A stretch of DNA of 64,000 nucleotides from Candidatus Bathyarchaeota archaeon (GTDB lineage: Archaea > Thermoproteota > Bathyarchaeia > Bathyarchaeales > Bathycorpusculaceae). The notes under the pieces are model-generated. The model saw only the letters and a list, made by a program, of their open reading frames with translations. It searched no databases and was not told the DNA's origin. Made by a program: the position numbers and the translations under genes. The DNA lies in NCBI GenBank assembly GCA_963827165.1, contig CAWGZR010000010.1:192001-256000 (forward strand), written 5' to 3'. Below, piece by piece: positions 33,608-41,186 of the stretch. The first letter of the stretch is position 1. Each line of letters opens with the position of its first letter.

Positions 33608-34595
33608 ATTGTAACGGCTGACTTTTCGGAGGTAATTGAGCTAAACAATGCAGTAAAAGATTATGGCAGCAACAGGCGAATTGGCCCCGCAAATCTCACG
33701 ATCAGAAAAGGAGAGATTGTGGGTTTTCTCGGTCCTAACGGATCAGGCAAGACCACCTGCATCAGACTTATCTTAGGTTTAATCAGGCCAACCTCAGGCA
33801 TGGTGAAAGTCAACGGGTTTGACCCAATTGCCAACCATGTTGAAGCATTAAGGCACGTAGCGTATTCTCCTGAGTTGCCTAACATACAGACTTTTCTAAG
33901 CCCAAGAGAACTTCTTAATTTAATTTCTCATGAACTCTATTTCCCGGATAACGCAAACAGAAGTGGCGAGATAGACCGAGTGATTGAACTGGTCGGTTTA
34001 CACGACTACGCGGACACAAAGGTCGGCAAACTCAGTAAAGGGATGATTCAAAGACTGAGCGTTGCCCAAGCGTTAGTCGGCTCGCCAGAAACTTTAATTC
34101 TGGATGAACCGATGATCGGTTTGGACCCCGCAGGGGTTGTTCATTTTAGGGATGTTTTCAGGGATTTCGCAGCCCATGGGAAAGGGACAGTATTCATGTC
34201 GTCACATATCATGAGTGAGGTGGAATCGCTTTGTACCTCAGTAGCAATGATTCACCATGGGAAAATACTATTCAAAGGGTCAGTCGAGGAAGTAGTTGGA
34301 AAAGTGTTGGATTATTCTCTTGTTGAACTGGAGACTAGCCCTTTAACGCCTCAAACAATCCAACAACTAAAAGAGATTCCCGGAATAACTCAAATAAACA
34401 TGGCAGACAACGACCAAGCGGATGCCATGCTCAGTCGAAATTACAGTTTGTGAACGTGACCATGATATTAGACCAGCAATTGCCGATATCGTAGTCAAGT
34501 CGGGCGCCAAACTCTACACCATCAAGCAGGGTGAAAACATGCTAGAGAAGGCTTACATAGAAGCGCTTAAAGAAACGAAAGGTGGCAAACCTTGA
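33608..34595 (+). CDS. ABC-2 type transporter ATP-binding protein (start codon unclear; C-terminal frameshift)
   Basis: GPNGSGKTT, LSKGMIQR, ILDEP, MSSH; frame open upstream of 33719; tail LEKAYIEAL in shifted frame ends at 34595. Confidence 0.9.
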
Positions 34596-35442
34596 AACGC
34601 GCTGAAGTCATTTTCACTTTTGCAAGGTATGAAATCAAGCGTGCCATCGCGCGCAAAAAAGTTTTGGCTCTAGTTGCTTTCACAATACTTCTGAGCGTAC
34701 TACCATATTACGCTTTGTCCCAAGCAGGAACCAATCTGATTCCCACAAATGTCTACTCGTACCTTTGGGTACTTGCAGTACTCCTGGTTGGTCCGCTCTT
34801 CTTAAACTTCACTGCAATCCTGATAGCTGCAGGGTCGATGTCAGAAGAATACGAGCAGGGCACAGCCGAACTTCTTTTGTCAAAACCAGTAAGACGAAGC
34901 GACTACATCGCTGGCAAATTCCTCGGCGGTTATATTCTGTTTCTTTTTATTCTTAGCTTTAACTCTTGTCTTATCCATTTCATCAGCCTTCACTTTTTTT
35001 GGCGCCCAAAACAACCTTTACCTAATTCCCGGATTATTCATAGCTCAAGCCTTTAGTTCACTATTATTCTTTTCTTTGGCTTTCATGCTTGGAGAACTAA
35101 TCAGGCGCTCTTCTCTTGCGTACATTTTCTCGTCAGCGGTTTTCTTTTCAAGTTACATTATAAGCATTTTTTTGAGCGCAATCTTTAGGGCCACGGGTAA
35201 AGTAGTTTATAAAACCGTTCAGATGTATCTTCCAACTTCGGCTGCAAGCTCGCTTCCTATTCAATATGCTTTACCGAGGCTTCCCTCGACTTTATCAACA
35301 GCCCTTTCGTCCATTCAACACTTCAACTTCTGGACCCACCATCAGCTTCTCAATCGAAATCCTGCTTGTCTACATAATCATATCAGTAACAATTGCAGCA
35401 GCTTACTTCCTGCATGCTGACATTTCAAGAAAACTAAGTTAA
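34592..35442 (+). CDS. ABC-2 type transporter permease (frameshifted)
   Basis: SEEYEQGTAELLLSKPVRR.DYIAGKF motif; TM helices across ORFs; ends YFLHADISRKLS. Confidence 0.85.
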
Positions 35443-35557
35443 TTTTATGTGAAGGATACATCACAGTTAACGAATAGATTTCTTCTCCTTTTTCCCTTTT
35501 TGCTGTTTTTGCCTGAATGGTATAACATAAAAGCAGGTTTAGGCAACATACCCAAAG

Positions 35558-36958
35558 ATGACCTCAACTCTCAAATGCATCCACTGTCAGAGTGAATTTC
35601 CAGTTTATCCCTTGAGAAGTAACTGCGAAAAATGCGGAGGAACATTAGAATTCACGGCAGACTTACCTAGAAGCAGGGGAACTGAGTTTTTCAGATCAAC
35701 TTGGATTCTGGCGATACAGGCAGGTGCTTCCCCCTGTAAATCATGTAGTAAGCTTAGGAGAAGGCGGAACGCCGATGCATAAGGCTGAGAGACTTGCTGG
35801 AGCAATCGGCTTAAAAGAACTCTACTTAAAAGATGAGACGCGCAATCCGACCAACAGTTACAGAGATCGGGCAGCCGCTTTCTTGACATCAAACGCGATT
35901 GACCGAGGCTTTGGTACACTGGTTTGTGCCAGCAACGGTAACATGGGAGCTTCCTTAGCTGCCTACACCGCAAAAGCAAGCTTGATCTGCCACGTGTTGG
36001 TCCCTAAAGTGGTCGATGTAGGCAAGTTGGCGCAAATGATCGCTTACGACGCCGTAATTGAAGAATCAGGGAATATCGTAGATGACTCCATTCGCAAAGC
36101 TTCTGACTTAGCAAAAGAATCAGGCTGGTACCAAGCAACCGCAGAACTTAACCCGTTCGTCGTTGAGGCACAAAAAACTATTTCCTACGAGATAAACGAG
36201 CAATTGTCAACCCCTGGCTGGATTATTGTCCCGATGGGAAGCGGCGGTACAATCTATTCGCTTTGGAAAGGCTTCAAAGAACTCAAACAGCTTGGGCTCA
36301 CTCAAATCGCTGCCTCGAATGGTTGGGGTTCAGACTGAAGGCTGCGCGCCAATAGTCAGCAAATTAAAAGAAAAAGCGCCAGTCAAAATCGTGCAACCCG
36401 TCGACCCGTGCATTGGCTATCCTCGTTGGCGAACCCTTGCAAAGCGACTTAGCTGTGAAAGCAATTAAGGAATCGAACGGATTGGCTTTAACAGTTTCAG
36501 ATGGCGAAATTTTGGCTTCTGAGCTTTTAGTGGCAAAACTGGAAGGGGTCTTCGCTGAACCTGCAAGTTCAGCCGCCGTGGCAGCGTTACAGAAACTGAA
36601 AGACAATCAGGTTTCTAGTGACGATAGCGTGGTGTGCCTTATCACTGGGAGCGGCTTAAAAGCCACTGATGTTTTGCAGGCGTTGAATAAAAAGCAGAAG
36701 GCGGCTGGCTTGGGACTTGCGGTCAGTACTAAACAGAAGATTCTCAAGATTCTCAGCGAAAAAGACTCCTACGGTTATGATTTGTGGAAATTGCTGGGGC
36801 AGGTTATGACCCGTGGTGCTGTTTATCAGCATCTTAATGAGTTGGCTGATAGAGGTTTGGTGGTTGGTTACGAGGCGGATGGGAAGAGGTTTTTCCGCAT
36901 CACTGAACGTGGAAGGAAGGTTTTGGCTGCGTTTGATGAGATTCAGTTGCTTATGTGA
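35558..36958 (+). CDS. Threonine synthase-like fold-II PLP protein fused to C-terminal winged HTH (PadR/ArsR-like); two frameshifts; PLP Lys replaced by Arg
   Basis: CIHC..CEKCGG, SLGEGGTP, KDETRNPTNSYRDR, ASNGNMG, VPMGSGG, EPASSAA, ITGSGLK, then KQKILKIL..KDSYGYDLW..TRGAVYQHLNELADRGLV..FRITERG. Confidence 0.85.
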
Positions 36959-36970
36959 GTTTTGGGAATG

Positions 36971-37014
36971 CTTATTAGGAATATAGCCACAACTATAATA
37001 TAGTTATAACTATA
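36971..37014 (+). promoter_or_regulatory. Promoter with tandem palindromic operator boxes
   Basis: CTTATTA (TATA-like), then TATAGCCACAACTATA (36982-36997) and perfect palindrome TATAGTTATAACTATA (36999-37014). Confidence 0.75.
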
Positions 37015-37016
37015 CT

Positions 37017-37577
37017 ATGGCGGTAAACATGGGATTCCGAACTAATCGAACAATAACACTCACAGTTGCACAGGCAGGAATCATGGCAGCACTAGTAGCA
37101 GTCGCAACGTATGCAGTGCAGGTTCCTATCCCAGCCACAAAGGGGTACCTGAACTTCGGCGACATAATGATCTTCGTTAGCGCTTTGACTTTCGGTCCAT
37201 TGGTTGGCAGCTTCGCAGGAGGCGTTGGATCTGCGTTATCTGACGTCGCAGGGGGATACGCATCAACGTACGCCCCGTTTACACTAATCATAAAAGGTGC
37301 AGAAGGAATCATCGTTGGCTTGATCGCTAAAAGGGGAAGCAGAAAAAGAAGCATCTTAGCCGTCGCCGTGGCGGGCGTGGAAATGGTGTCAGGATACTTT
37401 TTGGCTGAATTCTTCGGTCTTTCCCTCGGGTGGGCGGCGGCAACAGAAGTGCCCTTCAACATATTACAGATAGTCGCAGGCGGCGTAATCGGAATTCCAA
37501 TTGCTGTAATTCTTTGGAAGAGACTTCCCGAAGCTTGGCTAAACCCAAAATCCGCCCCAACAGTTCAGACAGCTTAA
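37017..37577 (+). CDS. ECF transporter S component (COG4720-like)
   Basis: ALVAVAT, P.TKGYLNFGD, GGVGSALSD, APFTLIIKGAEG, GYFLAE, N..Q. Confidence 0.9.
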   Translation: MAVNMGFRTNRTITLTVAQAGIMAALVAVATYAVQVPIPATKGYLNFGDIMIFVSALTFGPLVGSFAGGVGSALSDVAGGYASTYAPFTLIIKGAEGIIVGLIAKRGSRKRSILAVAVAGVEMVSGYFLAEFFGLSLGWAAATEVPFNILQIVAGGVIGIPIAVILWKRLPEAWLNPKSAPTVQTA

Positions 37578-37603
37578 AAGCTAGATTTCACAGAGGATAA
37601 GTT

Positions 37604-38611
37604 ATGAAACTTCCCCCAGGAAAAATCCCGGTTGAAATCCTCAAGGAAATCGTTTTCAAAAATTTAGGCGCTGAACGCAGCGAAGTAATTTTGGGTCCAG
37701 CCGCAGGATTAGACGGCGCAGTCTTGGACGTTGGAAGCAAAAATGCAATCGTCTCGATGGATCCGATAACGGGCGCGGTTGAACGCATAGGTTGGGAAGC
37801 CGTCAATGTCAACGCCAACGACGTCGCAACCTTCGGGGTTGAACCCGCCTTCCTATTTTCATGTCTGATGCTACCAGAAAACGCGGATAGCGAGATAGTC
37901 CAAAACATAGCAACCCAAATGAACGCTGCCGCAAAAGAGCTTGGTATCGCAATAGTTGGCGGGCACTGTGAGTCAACGCCAGGACTAACTAACCCCATCG
38001 TTGTCGGTTGTATTATGGGGTTAACTGAAAAAGGCAAATACGTCACAGCGGCAGGAGCCAAGAGCGGCGACAAATTGATTTTAACGAAAAGCGCAGGGAT
38101 CGAGGGCACAGCTATTTTGGCTTTTGATCGAGCGGACCAATTGAAAAAGGTCCTCAATCCATCTCTACTTTACAACGCAAGAAACTTTTACAATCAAATA
38201 AGCGTGGTAAAAGATGCGTTAACTGCTTATAAGGCGGGTGGAGTTCACGCGATGCATGATCCAACCGAAGGCGGGATCTTAAACGGCATCCACGAATTGG
38301 CAGATGCGGCAGGGTTAGGTGTAAAGGTTTTTGAGGACAAAATCGCGGTTGAGCCTGAAACAGCTAAAATCTGCCGTTTCTACGAAATAGACCCGTTACA
38401 GTTGATGGGTTCAGGCGCGTTACTCATATCTGCGGAGCCAGAAACCGCACCCAAAATACTCGATGCATTAAGCCAAGCACACATTGTTGCGGAAGAAATC
38501 GGTGAATTCAACCCGAGCCCGCAAAAGCGAATACTGATACTTAAGAACGAGTTGTCCAAGATGCTGCCAAGACCAGTCTCAGACCACTTATGGATTGCGT
38601 TAACCCACTGA
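37604..38611 (+). CDS. AIR synthase (PurM)-superfamily protein, PurM-like
   Basis: GKIP, GLDGAVL, SMDPITGA, NANDVAT.G, IVGGHCE, MHDPTEGG, DPLQLMGSGALL. Confidence 0.9.
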   Translation: MKLPPGKIPVEILKEIVFKNLGAERSEVILGPAAGLDGAVLDVGSKNAIVSMDPITGAVERIGWEAVNVNANDVATFGVEPAFLFSCLMLPENADSEIVQNIATQMNAAAKELGIAIVGGHCESTPGLTNPIVVGCIMGLTEKGKYVTAAGAKSGDKLILTKSAGIEGTAILAFDRADQLKKVLNPSLLYNARNFYNQISVVKDALTAYKAGGVHAMHDPTEGGILNGIHELADAAGLGVKVFEDKIAVEPETAKICRFYEIDPLQLMGSGALLISAEPETAPKILDALSQAHIVAEEIGEFNPSPQKRILILKNELSKMLPRPVSDHLWIALTH

Positions 38612-38647
38612 CCCTTTGACGAACGAGTGAAAACAACAAAACCGCGT

Positions 38648-39514
38648 TTAGGATTCGATTTTCTGTCTTGCCACTGTTTCTTCTGAAAAAGGCGCAATCT
38701 TATCAGAGTTCGGTTGGAACACTTGTTGCGTCATGATCGGGCTCTGATGCTGGTTAGGTTTCGGAATCGAGTTGTTTCTTAACCAGTTAAGGGGCACTTG
38801 GAACATCCAGTATAGCAAAAAGGCTGGGTAGAACAAGGTGTAGGCGTATAGATGTGAATAGACTAAACCGCATTTAAATTCGACTATGGCTTGTGAGAAA
38901 CCGGTTTTTACGTTCCAGCTGGTCGGTGGCTTGAAGTGAAGGCAGTATGCTTCTGTGGCAACCTGCACTTTGAAGCCTTGTTCCTTGATATGCTCGATAA
39001 TATAGGCGTCTTCGTAGATCTGCAGGTGATCGGGAACGATTATACCATTGACCGATTTGGTGAGAATCAGAGTGTCGTGGGTTCCGCCGCGTAAATTGAA
39101 GCATTCCCGGGCAAGTATACTCTGCAACCGAAGAACCCGCTTATCCCTCACGTTTGGGATAACATCAACGTTTAAACCCCAAATCGCTGCAACACCATTG
39201 CTCATATCCCTCTGCGCTTTTCTGTACCAGTCCTTGCAAAGAACAACGTCACTGTCAACAAACAAAAACCATTCAGTGTTGACGTGGCGGATGCCTTCGG
39301 TTCGTGCTTTAGCCCTTGAACCGTCAATTTGAATAAGTACAATGTTTCCATGCGCCTTGTTGAAGCCGTCAAGGATTTCCAGGGTTCTGTCGGTTGAGAA
39401 GCCGTCGATCACGATTAAGTTTTTCACGGGCACATTTTCATAAACCGACGTTAAACAATTGCTGAGAACGTGCTCACTGTTCTTAGTCAGCAATACCACG
39501 TCAACTTGATCCAT
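38648..39514 (-). CDS. Glycosyltransferase family 2
   Basis: VVLLTKNS, IDGFSTD.T, FVDSD, YED. Confidence 0.9.
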   Translation of the reverse strand: MDQVDVVLLTKNSEHVLSNCLTSVYENVPVKNLIVIDGFSTDRTLEILDGFNKAHGNIVLIQIDGSRAKARTEGIRHVNTEWFLFVDSDVVLCKDWYRKAQRDMSNGVAAIWGLNVDVIPNVRDKRVLRLQSILARECFNLRGGTHDTLILTKSVNGIIVPDHLQIYEDAYIIEHIKEQGFKVQVATEAYCLHFKPPTSWNVKTGFSQAIVEFKCGLVYSHLYAYTLFYPAFLLYWMFQVPLNWLRNNSIPKPNQHQSPIMTQQVFQPNSDKIAPFSEETVARQKIES

Positions 39515-39577: not shown

Positions 39578-40369
39578 TTAACGCTGCCCCTCTCGCCTGG
39601 CAACCTCATAGAGCGCGTAGCCTGAGTAAAACGCGTAGGCAGCAAGCAACTTGCCGATCAACCATACATCCCCAAGCGTAAGGGCTTCAGCAAACAACCC
39701 TATGCTGCCTCTAAATGTCCAAACGTTCGGCGGACGGTAATGAATGCAGAATGGGATGTAGCAGGGGATTACGCGGTAGCCTTTTTGTTCAATCCAGTCT
39801 TTTATGTAGGCGTCTTCGTAAACATGAAGTTTCTTTGGAATTTGAATATCTTTAACTAGTTCGGTTTTGATGAGGGTGTCGTGGGTTCCGCCGCGGACCT
39901 CAAAAATTTTCCGTGTAATCCGCAAAAAAATGCCCATGGTCACGGAGCTTCCGATTGTTGACCAAATCTCTGTTCCCCAAACCGCACCAACATCCTCGTT
40001 AATGTACTGTTGGGCTTTTTTGTACCAATCATTACAGAGGATGACATCACTGTCGACAAACAGAAACCATTCTGTGTTTACGTCAGCTATGCCTTTTTGG
40101 CGTGCAGTGGCACGGTTGCCTTTGTCCATTATGATTTTTACGTTGTGGTATTTTTCGTCAAACCAATTAAGAACATCCAAGGTTTTGTCCGTTGAGTATC
40201 CGTCGACTGCTATGAGTCGGGCAACTGGCACGTTGTTATACACGGATTCTAGGCATTCTTTGAGTTTTCTGTCGCTGTTCTTAGTCAACAGCACAACGTC
40301 AACCGAGTCCACGCAACCAACTCCTTTCTTGACCGCTAAGTTAACGGTCAACTCATAGAGGCTATGCAA
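39578..40369 (-). CDS. Glycosyltransferase family 2 (tandem paralog)
   Basis: Same motifs as the neighbour (VDGYSTD, EWFLFVDSDV, RGGTHDTLI, YEDAYI). Confidence 0.9.
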   Translation of the reverse strand: MHSLYELTVNLAVKKGVGCVDSVDVVLLTKNSDRKLKECLESVYNNVPVARLIAVDGYSTDKTLDVLNWFDEKYHNVKIIMDKGNRATARQKGIADVNTEWFLFVDSDVILCNDWYKKAQQYINEDVGAVWGTEIWSTIGSSVTMGIFLRITRKIFEVRGGTHDTLIKTELVKDIQIPKKLHVYEDAYIKDWIEQKGYRVIPCYIPFCIHYRPPNVWTFRGSIGLFAEALTLGDVWLIGKLLAAYAFYSGYALYEVARREGQR

Positions 40370-40573: not shown

Positions 40574-41186
40574 TTGATGATTGTTGGAGCCGTCGTTCTT
40601 GCAGCGGGCAAATCTGAAAGGATGGGTCATAACAAGCTTCTTTTAAGTTTGAATGGGAAGAAACTGATTGATAATATTTTGGATGCGCTGGCGGAGTCGG
40701 GCATAGATGAGCAGGTGGTTGTGTTGGGGCATAAACCGGATCAGAGTTGTAGAAGCCTTAAACCGAGAATGGACAAAGTCAAATAGCTATAAACAGTGGA
40801 TTATCGAGCACGGGATGACTTCCTCATTCCAACTGGATTGCAATTTTTGAGGCATGTAGATGCGGCGTTTCTGGTTCTTGGCGATGAACCCATCTTTGAC
40901 CCAAGATTATGCGCTCATTGATCGAGACTAATGGAAAAAAACCATATAGCGTTGATTGTGAGCCCCGATTTACAAAGGAAAAAAGGGTCATCCGCTTCTT
41001 TTCCACAGCCAACTCTTCGCGGAAATATTAGATTTGAAGAGTTCCCAGACCATCCGCGATGTTGTTCATCGCCACGTGGACAAAGTGGTCAAAATTGAGG
41101 CACCACAGTGGACAACTATGGATATAGATACGCCTGAAGACTACCGCCGCATAAGCGACTTTATGAAAACAAATCAAGTTCGATAA
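40574..41186 (+). CDS. MocA/MobA-like molybdenum cofactor nucleotidyltransferase (multiply frameshifted)
   Basis: VLAAGKSERMGHNKLLL; later frames give LVLGDEP, KKGHPLLF and DIDTPEDY. Confidence 0.85.

Follow-up and report, generated by a model that had tools for sequence, protein, structure and literature searches.

A lysine-less threonine synthase-like protein as a probable vitamin B6 repressor of an uptake operon in Bathyarchaeia

The window analysed here is a stretch of 64,000 nucleotides from a bathyarchaeal genome (G000:C10:192001-256000). The source genome, G000, has 3.13 Mb in 14 contigs and is 94.5% complete. Within the window lies a gene that we term ThrCR, followed by two operator boxes, a gene for the S-component of an energy-coupling factor (ECF) transporter and a gene for a protein of the PurM superfamily. 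ThrCR probably encodes a one-component repressor that responds to vitamin B6, presumably in the form of pyridoxal 5'-phosphate (PLP), and that controls a B6 uptake operon together with the PurM-like gene. The protein resembles threonine synthase (ThrC), but looks catalytically dead. As part of the same explanation, we think it likely that ThrCR is a transcription factor that arose from a duplicated archaeal ThrC and not a threonine synthase. The regulator gene and its relevant features are the following.

35558-36958, plus strand: regulator gene ThrCR, supported by open reading frames, Pfam, homologues, read-derived contigs, AlphaFold2 and Foldseek.
35862-35864, plus strand: AGA arginine codon at the position of the Schiff-base lysine (NPTNSYRDR against NPTGSFKDR in ThrC, from the alignment to 2zsj).
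36231-36248, plus strand: retained glycine-rich loop PMGSGG, aligned with PVGNAGN of ThrC.
36740-36928, plus strand: winged helix-turn-helix (wHTH) of the PadR type (PF03551 at 1e-10; 41.9 bits, cut-off 27).

In the assembly, ThrCR is broken into four overlapping open reading frames (ORFs) in frames 2, 0, 1 and 2, a split on which the initial annotation of this DNA was silent. The assembled gene has one extra base each at 35668, 36300 and 36384. We compared positions 35558-37100 with Logan contigs from four public soil and sediment runs, including X1 from study P1 and X2 and X3 from study P2. Every contig that covers one of these sites lacks the extra base (35668 in X1 and X3; 36300 in X1 and X2; 36384 in X1, X2 and X3). 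Besides the three indels, 10 base differences between the run contigs and the window were listed, none of them at the arginine codon. Without the three bases ThrCR is a single frame of 465 codons, similar in length to intact homologues of 462-469 amino acids, and its last 181 residues share up to 97% identity with intact homologues. Since independent run contigs lack the extra bases and one 465-codon frame results, the gene is intact in nature and the fusion of the ThrC-like domain to the wHTH is real. It is most improbable that the regulator is a decaying pseudogene in G000 with the operator as its relic. The three frameshifts in 1.4 kb of assembly speak for such decay, but contigs from two studies lack exactly those bases and otherwise show only the 10 listed differences, and neighbouring genes of the window are likewise broken up into adjacent ORFs, which hints at indels of the assembly. 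A placement of the three frameshifts in homopolymer runs was dropped, as at least 35668 and 36300 lie outside homopolymers.

The domain order of ThrCR is an N-terminal CxxC...CxxC zinc ribbon, a ThrC-like fold-type II PLP domain without the lysine, a flexible linker and the PadR wHTH. Pfam finds PALP (PF00291) on the middle pieces of the gene (5.7e-48) and the end of PALP followed by the PadR wHTH on the last piece. Matches in this Pfam search were to PALP and PadR/ArsR-type HTH families only, with none to GntR or aminotransferase families. An AlphaFold2 model based on a 62-row alignment contains the ribbon, the ThrC fold, the linker and the wHTH, with a predicted local distance difference test (pLDDT) of 88 and a predicted template-modelling score of 0.78; it replaced a model from a shallow 11-row alignment (pLDDT 44), which was discarded. 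Linker residues 368-387 have a pLDDT below 50, and residues 390-464 form the wHTH with three helices and a beta hairpin at a pLDDT of about 90. Foldseek matches the model to the ThrC structures 2zsj, 6nmx and others with template-modelling scores of 0.83-0.87. The initial annotation had described an arginine in place of the Schiff-base lysine, a conserved PMGSGG loop and a C-terminal wHTH, and all three are borne out: the contigs of the four runs show no difference at the AGA codon, the loop is present, and after removal of the three bases the wHTH is in frame with the rest of the protein and not a separate gene. On the threonine synthase model TIGR00260 ThrCR reaches 206 bits and passes the cut-off of 167, which accounts for its naming as threonine synthase in databases. 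The NCBIfam model NF004170 (PRK05638) spans the whole fusion, and ThrCR stays below its cut-off (403.6 against 421 bits). None of 14 named control genomes contains a protein above the NF004170 cut-off, and no cultured carrier was named in that way.

The loss of the lysine is a family feature. A protein search with the C-terminal piece of ThrCR gave 903 matches at E <=0.001; all 120 matches listed carry PALP and PadR, and many of them are named threonine synthase at source. From Bathyarchaeia we assembled group 1, which consists of 80 species-representative loci at 58-91% identity. The initial annotation had proposed to look for the exchange of lysine for arginine and for the fusion in homologues, and both are found in 80 of 80 loci, the arginine within the motif NPT[NHSQ]S[YF]RDR and the wHTH fusion uninterrupted (72 by pattern, 8 by eye). 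The 11 full-length homologues that were aligned all have the arginine and the intact fusion as well. ThrCR shares with ThrC (TIGR00260; 2zsj, 6nmx, 1uim) the fold and 38-40% identity over about 335 residues, but differs in the missing Schiff-base lysine, in changed S-T-G-N-T, N-S and R motifs and in the extra wHTH. Compared with the Aquifex ThrC 2zsj (E 6e-63), NPTGSFKDR is changed to NPTNSYRDR, CASTGNTSAS to CASNGNMGAS, NPYRIEGQKT to NPLVVEAQKT and PVGNAGNITA to PMGSGGTIYS. A true ThrC that has the lysine is encoded elsewhere in G000 on contig 5 (G000:C5) and is 43% identical to ThrCR. The N-terminal CxxC...CxxC ribbon is common to the true ThrC paralogues of G000, and it is therefore ancestral and not a feature of the regulator.

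A second lineage of ThrC-wHTH fusions, group 2, has proteins of about 490-500 amino acids with methionine, leucine, isoleucine or valine at the lysine position in 13 of 13 loci (L088-L100). We compared the consensus of three true ThrC paralogues, the 80 group-1 and the 13 group-2 proteins. The asparagine of GN, the glycine-rich loop, EPAS and TGxGLK are kept in the true ThrC and in both regulator groups. Replaced in both regulator groups are the lysine, the serine/threonine pairs around GN (S-T..T-S), the N-S pair and the arginine of NPxRxEGQKT. We take the kept positions to line the cofactor in ThrC and the lost ones to hold the phosphate and carboxylate of phosphohomoserine. If these residue roles hold, the ThrC-like domain would have kept a PLP-shaped pocket while it gave up catalysis and substrate binding. 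The loss of the Schiff-base lysine in two lineages, by arginine in one and by M/L/I/V in the other, suggests selection for a reversible, non-covalent sensing of PLP, unlike the situation in bacterial PdxR.

Directly behind the regulator gene lies the putative control region.

36971-36978, plus strand: TATA-like element CTTATTAG, directly 5' of the operator.
36982-36997, no strand assigned: operator box 1, TATAGCCACAACTATA, a degenerate copy of the family palindrome.
36999-37014, no strand assigned: operator box 2, TATAGTTATAACTATA, which forms the core of aTATAGTTATAACTATAc and matches GTATAG-N6-CTATAC better than any other site of G000.

The family as a whole has a 22-bp palindrome, TAGTATAGTTnnAACTATACTA, just past the stop codon of the regulator, and both boxes are copies of it. 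They are situated between the TATA-like box and the next gene, as the initial annotation had described them. The exact sequence TATAG-N6-CTATA occurs at 5 sites in G000, and the two in the window are the only adjacent pair. The other exact sites are C10:352395, which is preceded by a run of T and may be a promoter, C12:80328 and C3:137487. We scored the operator as GTATAG-N6-CTATAC with <=2 mismatches of 12. By this measure 73 of 80 loci have it <=150 nt past the regulator stop, with a perfect copy in 56. In 6 of the other 7 (L010, L046, L047, L072, L076, L079) a gene is inserted, and there the operator immediately precedes the S-component gene that was displaced; the palindrome of L071 is a variant. 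The proposed operator is thus conserved. The background amounts to 25 operator-like sites elsewhere in 786 kb of locus sequence, six of them the displaced sites. In the consensus of 79 loci an A/T-rich TATA-like element ('tta.a', 'ctaatata', 'tttattag') abuts the left half-site, and the start codon of the next gene follows 12-40 nt past the right half-site. Close relatives have a second, weaker downstream box, as does the window. Genomes of the same genus that lack the regulator keep the pair of S-component and PurM-like genes in 4 of 4 cases and are without the operator in 4 of 4 cases. An Rfam scan of positions 35000-39000 with E up to 1 gave no match, and no riboswitch was found there.

The core promoter is the usual repressor site in archaea. 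ThrCR bound at the palindrome would sit on the core promoter and would thus probably act as a repressor; since the palindrome abuts the TATA box and reaches toward the transcription start, binding would block initiation. We propose that at sufficient intracellular B6 the ThrC-like domain would bind a B6 vitamer phosphate, most likely PLP, reversibly and without formation of an aldimine. The liganded protein, presumably a dimer, would then occupy the palindrome, of which G000 has two adjacent copies, and would cover the DNA from the edge of the TATA box to the point where transcription of the next gene begins. The operon shut off in this way would encode an S-component of the HmpT/PdxU2 type for uptake and an ATP-using enzyme of the PurM superfamily. 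What the comparison of genomes shows is the anatomy of the module, its conservation, the linkage of the genes and the absence of others; which ligand binds, in which direction regulation runs, that the protein is a dimer and what the enzyme does are inferred.

The two genes behind the operator are the following.

37017-37577, plus strand: ECF S-component of the HmpT/PdxU2 type, predicted to take up B6 vitamers (PF07155, 4.1e-37, 128 bits).
37604-38611, plus strand: PurM-superfamily protein, here PurM-like A, a candidate B6 vitamer kinase (PF00586, 62.9 bits; PF02769, 82.6 bits).

The S-component probably starts at the ATG at 37029 (MGFRT...), like its counterparts in L004 and L005, the closest loci, in which no ATG corresponds to that of 37017. 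The only sequence in the PDB that matches the S-component is chain S of 4hzu (E 2e-15). This chain is the HmpT/PdxU2 of Lactobacillus brevis, from which pyridoxamine was extracted and identified by mass spectrometry, and which had first been named HmpT after hydroxymethylpyrimidine (HMP) (PMC4860826). The placement of the window protein in an S-component group with predicted pyridoxine/HMP transporters, made in the initial annotation, agrees with this relationship. Both proteins belong to PF07155, and of six conserved pocket residues named for 4hzu_S (PMC4860826) three are identical (Tyr120, Asn140, Gln143), while Glu41 is replaced by Asp and His84 by Lys; in the window protein a Tyr also takes the place of Trp76, a further contact residue. 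The overall identity is low and the regulation is another one, and the substrate of the window protein, a B6 vitamer, is predicted. Four matches to EcfT (PF02361) above the cut-off were found in G000 by a search aimed at EcfT alone; with EcfT homologues present, energising modules exist in this genome.

The gene context across the family ties the module to B6. A tblastn search over the 80 regulator loci detected the S-component in 74 and PurM-like A in 71. At L006, L011 and L013 pdxS and then pdxT stand behind the operator in place of the S-component gene, and the PurM-like gene follows at a distance of 2-3 kb. A similar alternation is seen in group 2, where the regulator gene diverges from pdxS-pdxT at L088 and L089 and from an S-component gene of the same kind at 6 loci, with a PurM-like gene alongside in L092 and L096. 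The group-2 loci have a related A/T-rich palindrome, ATATATAAG-N6/7-CCTATATAT, located 15-45 nt before the regulator start in about 10 of 13 loci. Thus, regulator and operator precede the de novo synthase in some loci and the importer in others, in auxotrophs mostly the importer, and the link to B6 made in the initial annotation is strengthened. These gene neighbourhoods also bear on the nature of the signal. What the ThrC-like domain senses might instead be an amino acid or some phosphorylated intermediate, for example O-phosphohomoserine, threonine or a different amine, with PLP as a non-covalent cofactor and B6 not the signal, similar to GabR-type MocR proteins, in which the effector forms an external aldimine. 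The domain descends from an amino-acid enzyme and has kept the cofactor-side motifs, and PLP that is bound without a covalent link would have a free aldehyde, so that an effector with an amine could react with it. We consider such an amino-acid sensor unlikely, because the regulated genes in two independent lineages are the B6-type S-component or pdxST and not amino-acid genes, and because the positions taken as substrate-binding in ThrC are replaced in both lineages.

A B6 importer fits the gene content of G000. Neither pdxS nor PdxJ was found in this genome, and no protein scored above the cut-off of PF08543, the family of PdxK and ThiD, which matched in 14 of 14 control genomes. Two matches to PF01174 (PdxT/SNO) at 28 bits, right at the cut-off, belong to ORFs of 537 and 238 amino acids, and we read them as other glutamine amidotransferases; as PdxS is absent, they leave the picture unchanged. 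Lacking both de novo synthesis (PdxST, PdxJ) and a kinase of the PdxK/ThiD family, G000 must import B6 and needs a phosphorylating enzyme. These absences suit the salvage function that the initial annotation had proposed. In a class sample of 201 Bathyarchaeia genomes PdxS is present in 29, and in 19 of the 121 genomes that are >=90% complete. The group-1 regulator, called by score and coverage, is present in 61 of the 201, and 57 of these 61 have no PdxS. PF08543 is found in 87 genomes, nearly always as a single ORF of about 450-480 amino acids; the two such ORFs that were checked are both ThiD-ThiN fusions, and no stand-alone PdxK was seen. B6 auxotrophy seems to be the rule in Bathyarchaeia. 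With PdxS in only 29 of 201 genomes, cross-feeding of B6 looks central to the ecology of these abundant soil and sediment archaea.

The question is then which enzyme phosphorylates the imported vitamer. PurM-like A is below every NCBIfam equivalog cut-off (HypE 108.6 against 251.6 bits, ThiL 95.3 against 184, SelD 75 against 125, PurM 46 against 236), and other loci of G000 encode a ThiL (255.6 bits), a HypE (367.5 bits) and a SelD (337 bits). With canonical copies of these three present, PurM-like A is not ThiL, HypE or SelD. In 83 orthologues D37, D53, N72-D73, G120-H121 (GGH) and HDPTEGG at 218-224 are invariant, and the C-terminal cysteine of HypE-type enzymes is absent. PurM-like A occurs in 163 of the 201 class genomes when counted at E <=1e-70, which may miss divergent copies, and it is far more widespread than the group-1 regulator. 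Among 20 genomes without this regulator it adjoins the S-component in 13 and a pdxS/pdxT cluster in G007, 14 of 20 in total. The two genes are co-directional within the same genus and convergent in distant families. PdxS is found in 11 of 38 class genomes without PurM-like A against 18 of 163 with it, counts that come from related and not independent genomes. An auxotroph that imports B6 needs a kinase, and PurM-like A is a conserved, ATP-using and B6-linked protein with no assigned function; on these grounds we put it forward, tentatively, as the B6 vitamer kinase.

A paralogous module in the same genome gives some support to this proposal.

G000:C10:121883-124856 (L105 4383-7356), about 70 kb upstream of the window: second operon with a PF07155 S-component, an S-adenosylmethionine methyltransferase, a PurM-like paralogue (PurM-like B) and ThiE.

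PurM-like B is 33% identical to PurM-like A, and the four-gene order recurs in G072, G148 and G077. It is present in 17 of the 201 class genomes, and PF08543 is found in 0 of these 17 against 87 of the other 184. This distribution suggests that PurM-like B is a candidate non-orthologous HMP kinase that replaces ThiD. The B6- and thiamine-linked PurM-like proteins would then mirror the paralogue pair PdxK and ThiD, and by this analogy the thiamine-linked module supports the reading of PurM-like A as a kinase. Vitamin salvage may, as this module hints, more generally pair an S-component and a PurM-like kinase. One might also ask whether the operon in the window itself serves HMP salvage, with an S-component that imports HMP and PurM-like A as a ThiD- or ThiL-like kinase. 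The first name of 4hzu_S (PMC4860826), the 95 bits of PurM-like A on the ThiL model and the paralogous pair beside ThiE all point that way. We regard it as quite improbable, since the thiamine-linked module is a separate paralogue with only 33% identity, pdxST and not thi genes alternate with or neighbour the window module, the sensor derives from a PLP enzyme, and the canonical ThiL is encoded elsewhere in G000.

Several observations weigh against ThrCR as a B6 repressor and PurM-like A as the salvage kinase. The genomes are related by kinship and not independent, and counts of loci overstate the support. The reading of the pocket presumes the roles of ThrC residues as phosphate loop and as substrate phosphate site. 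The initial annotation had proposed to look for the operator upstream of pdxS, and the outcome was negative: in the four class genomes with regulator and non-adjacent PdxS (G151, G082, G190, G056) no operator was found upstream of pdxS. The scan of G000 gave 49 sites at <=2 mismatches, which is the background level, and no convincing second target. With both scans negative, the regulon is apparently a single operon and offers little cross-validation. A different B6 vitamer might also be the effector, or an amino acid that acts jointly with PLP. For the enzyme, PurM-like A is present in 18 of the 29 PdxS-positive genomes and is therefore not a strict substitute for synthesis. Moreover, phosphorylation of an alcohol is not known from the PurM superfamily, so the kinase idea demands new chemistry, and this is the chief doubt about it. 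It is close to an even prospect that regulator and transporter are correctly assigned and that PurM-like A is something else: another ATP-dependent enzyme, of B6 or a neighbouring metabolism, or a widely conserved enzyme with only a loose linkage. In addition to the chemistry, this is suggested by its presence in 163 class genomes against 61 with the regulator, by its convergent orientation to the S-component in distant families, where the two are not co-transcribed, and by its best matches to HypE-type enzymes. A vitamer kinase is in turn favoured by the adjacency to the S-component or pdxST across families and orientations (14 of 20 genomes and 71 of 80 regulator loci), by the lack of a known B6 kinase in G000 and by the absence of the HypE C-terminal cysteine.

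Sensors derived from PLP enzymes have been described before. In PdxR of the MocR family, PLP is the effector, and a PLP-enzyme-derived sensor with a wHTH controls pdxST or other B6 genes (PMC5320631). This is the system closest to ThrCR in its working, as ThrCR also joins a PLP-enzyme-derived sensor to a wHTH and is linked to pdxST and B6 genes. The two differ in construction. ThrCR has a fold-type II ThrC-like domain and a C-terminal PadR wHTH, while PdxR has a fold-type I aminotransferase-like domain and an N-terminal GntR wHTH. PdxR keeps the Schiff-base lysine, which ThrCR lacks, the host of ThrCR is archaeal, and neither domain is homologous. Within the archaea, ThiR is a regulator derived from ThiN. 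RbkR, the archaeal riboflavin kinase and regulator, is described as bifunctional (PMC5397151). Like ThrCR, these vitamin regulators combine an enzyme domain, in their case from the pathway that they regulate, with a DNA-binding domain; the genes under their control serve synthesis and transport. Their sequences are unrelated to that of ThrCR, and the sensor of ThrCR would derive from an enzyme that uses PLP and not from one of the B6 pathway; ThrCR also appears to have lost its catalytic activity. On the enzyme side, PurM-like A shares the AIRS and AIRS_C domains, the conserved aspartates and the DPTxGG motif with the PurM superfamily, to which the vitamin kinase ThiL also belongs. It differs from ThiL, HypE, SelD and PurM in the sub-threshold equivalog scores and in the missing HypE cysteine, and its proposed substrate is an alcohol and not a phosphate, amide or selenide. 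PdxK belongs to the ribokinase superfamily and is not homologous to PurM-like A. The literature searched holds no vitamin B6 transcription factor described in Archaea, and neither a ThrC-wHTH regulator nor a B6 kinase of the PurM-like type is described in it, nor any measured binding or activity of these proteins; most subscription journals and the supplementary tables of PMC9997740 lay outside this search. The main text of that 2023 survey of PLP pathway holes is without threonine synthase, PurM, PadR or ECF (PMC9997740). ThrCR would belong among the enzyme-derived vitamin regulators, in a new form, and a PurM-like kinase would be the more novel possibility.

Fusions of this type are not restricted to Bathyarchaeia. 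A phylum-wide profile search detected full-length ThrC-wHTH fusions in many further families. Among 20 phylum loci that were fetched (L129-L148), all 16 recognised ORFs lack the lysine (L, M, V, I, T or R in its place); next to the fusion gene lies an S-component gene in 11 loci and pdxST in a single one, G022. Counted together with L088-L100, the second lineage comprises proteins of about 480-500 amino acids. In the ESM Atlas, clusters with PALP and PadR are commonest in Bathyarchaeota (1978 members), Nitrososphaerota (53) and Thorarchaeota (50). In some families (f37 and others; G234:C4:4205-5599, G248:C14:20025-21434) the profile match crosses one stop near the junction, and such matches may be split sensor and wHTH genes or assembly errors. 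It is conceivable, if doubtful as a whole, that Bathyarchaeia, other Thermoproteota and, by the Atlas, also Nitrososphaerota and Thorarchaeota maintain B6 homeostasis with a lysine-less ThrC sensor-repressor, a PdxU2-like importer and a PurM-superfamily kinase in place of PdxK, with PurM-like B likewise replacing ThiD. If true, the PurM fold would acquire a new class of reaction, and the salvage-kinase gap would be filled in many B6- and thiamine-auxotrophic archaea. Several thousand database entries named threonine synthase, such as those matched by the C-terminal piece and the Atlas cluster of 1978 members, would be misannotated regulators. The candidate archaeal B6 transcription factor comes with a defined 22-bp operator, and the module points to a likely importer and to a candidate for the missing salvage kinase.

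Two observations concern the surroundings of the module. Convergent to PurM-like A are two tandem paralogous glycosyltransferase-like genes on the minus strand (38648-39514 and 39578-40369), which mark the end of the operon. The genes for the ATPase and permease of an ABC transporter (33719-35420) and for a MobA-like nucleotidyltransferase (40574-41186) are split into adjacent or overlapping ORFs, probably by single-base indels of the assembly.

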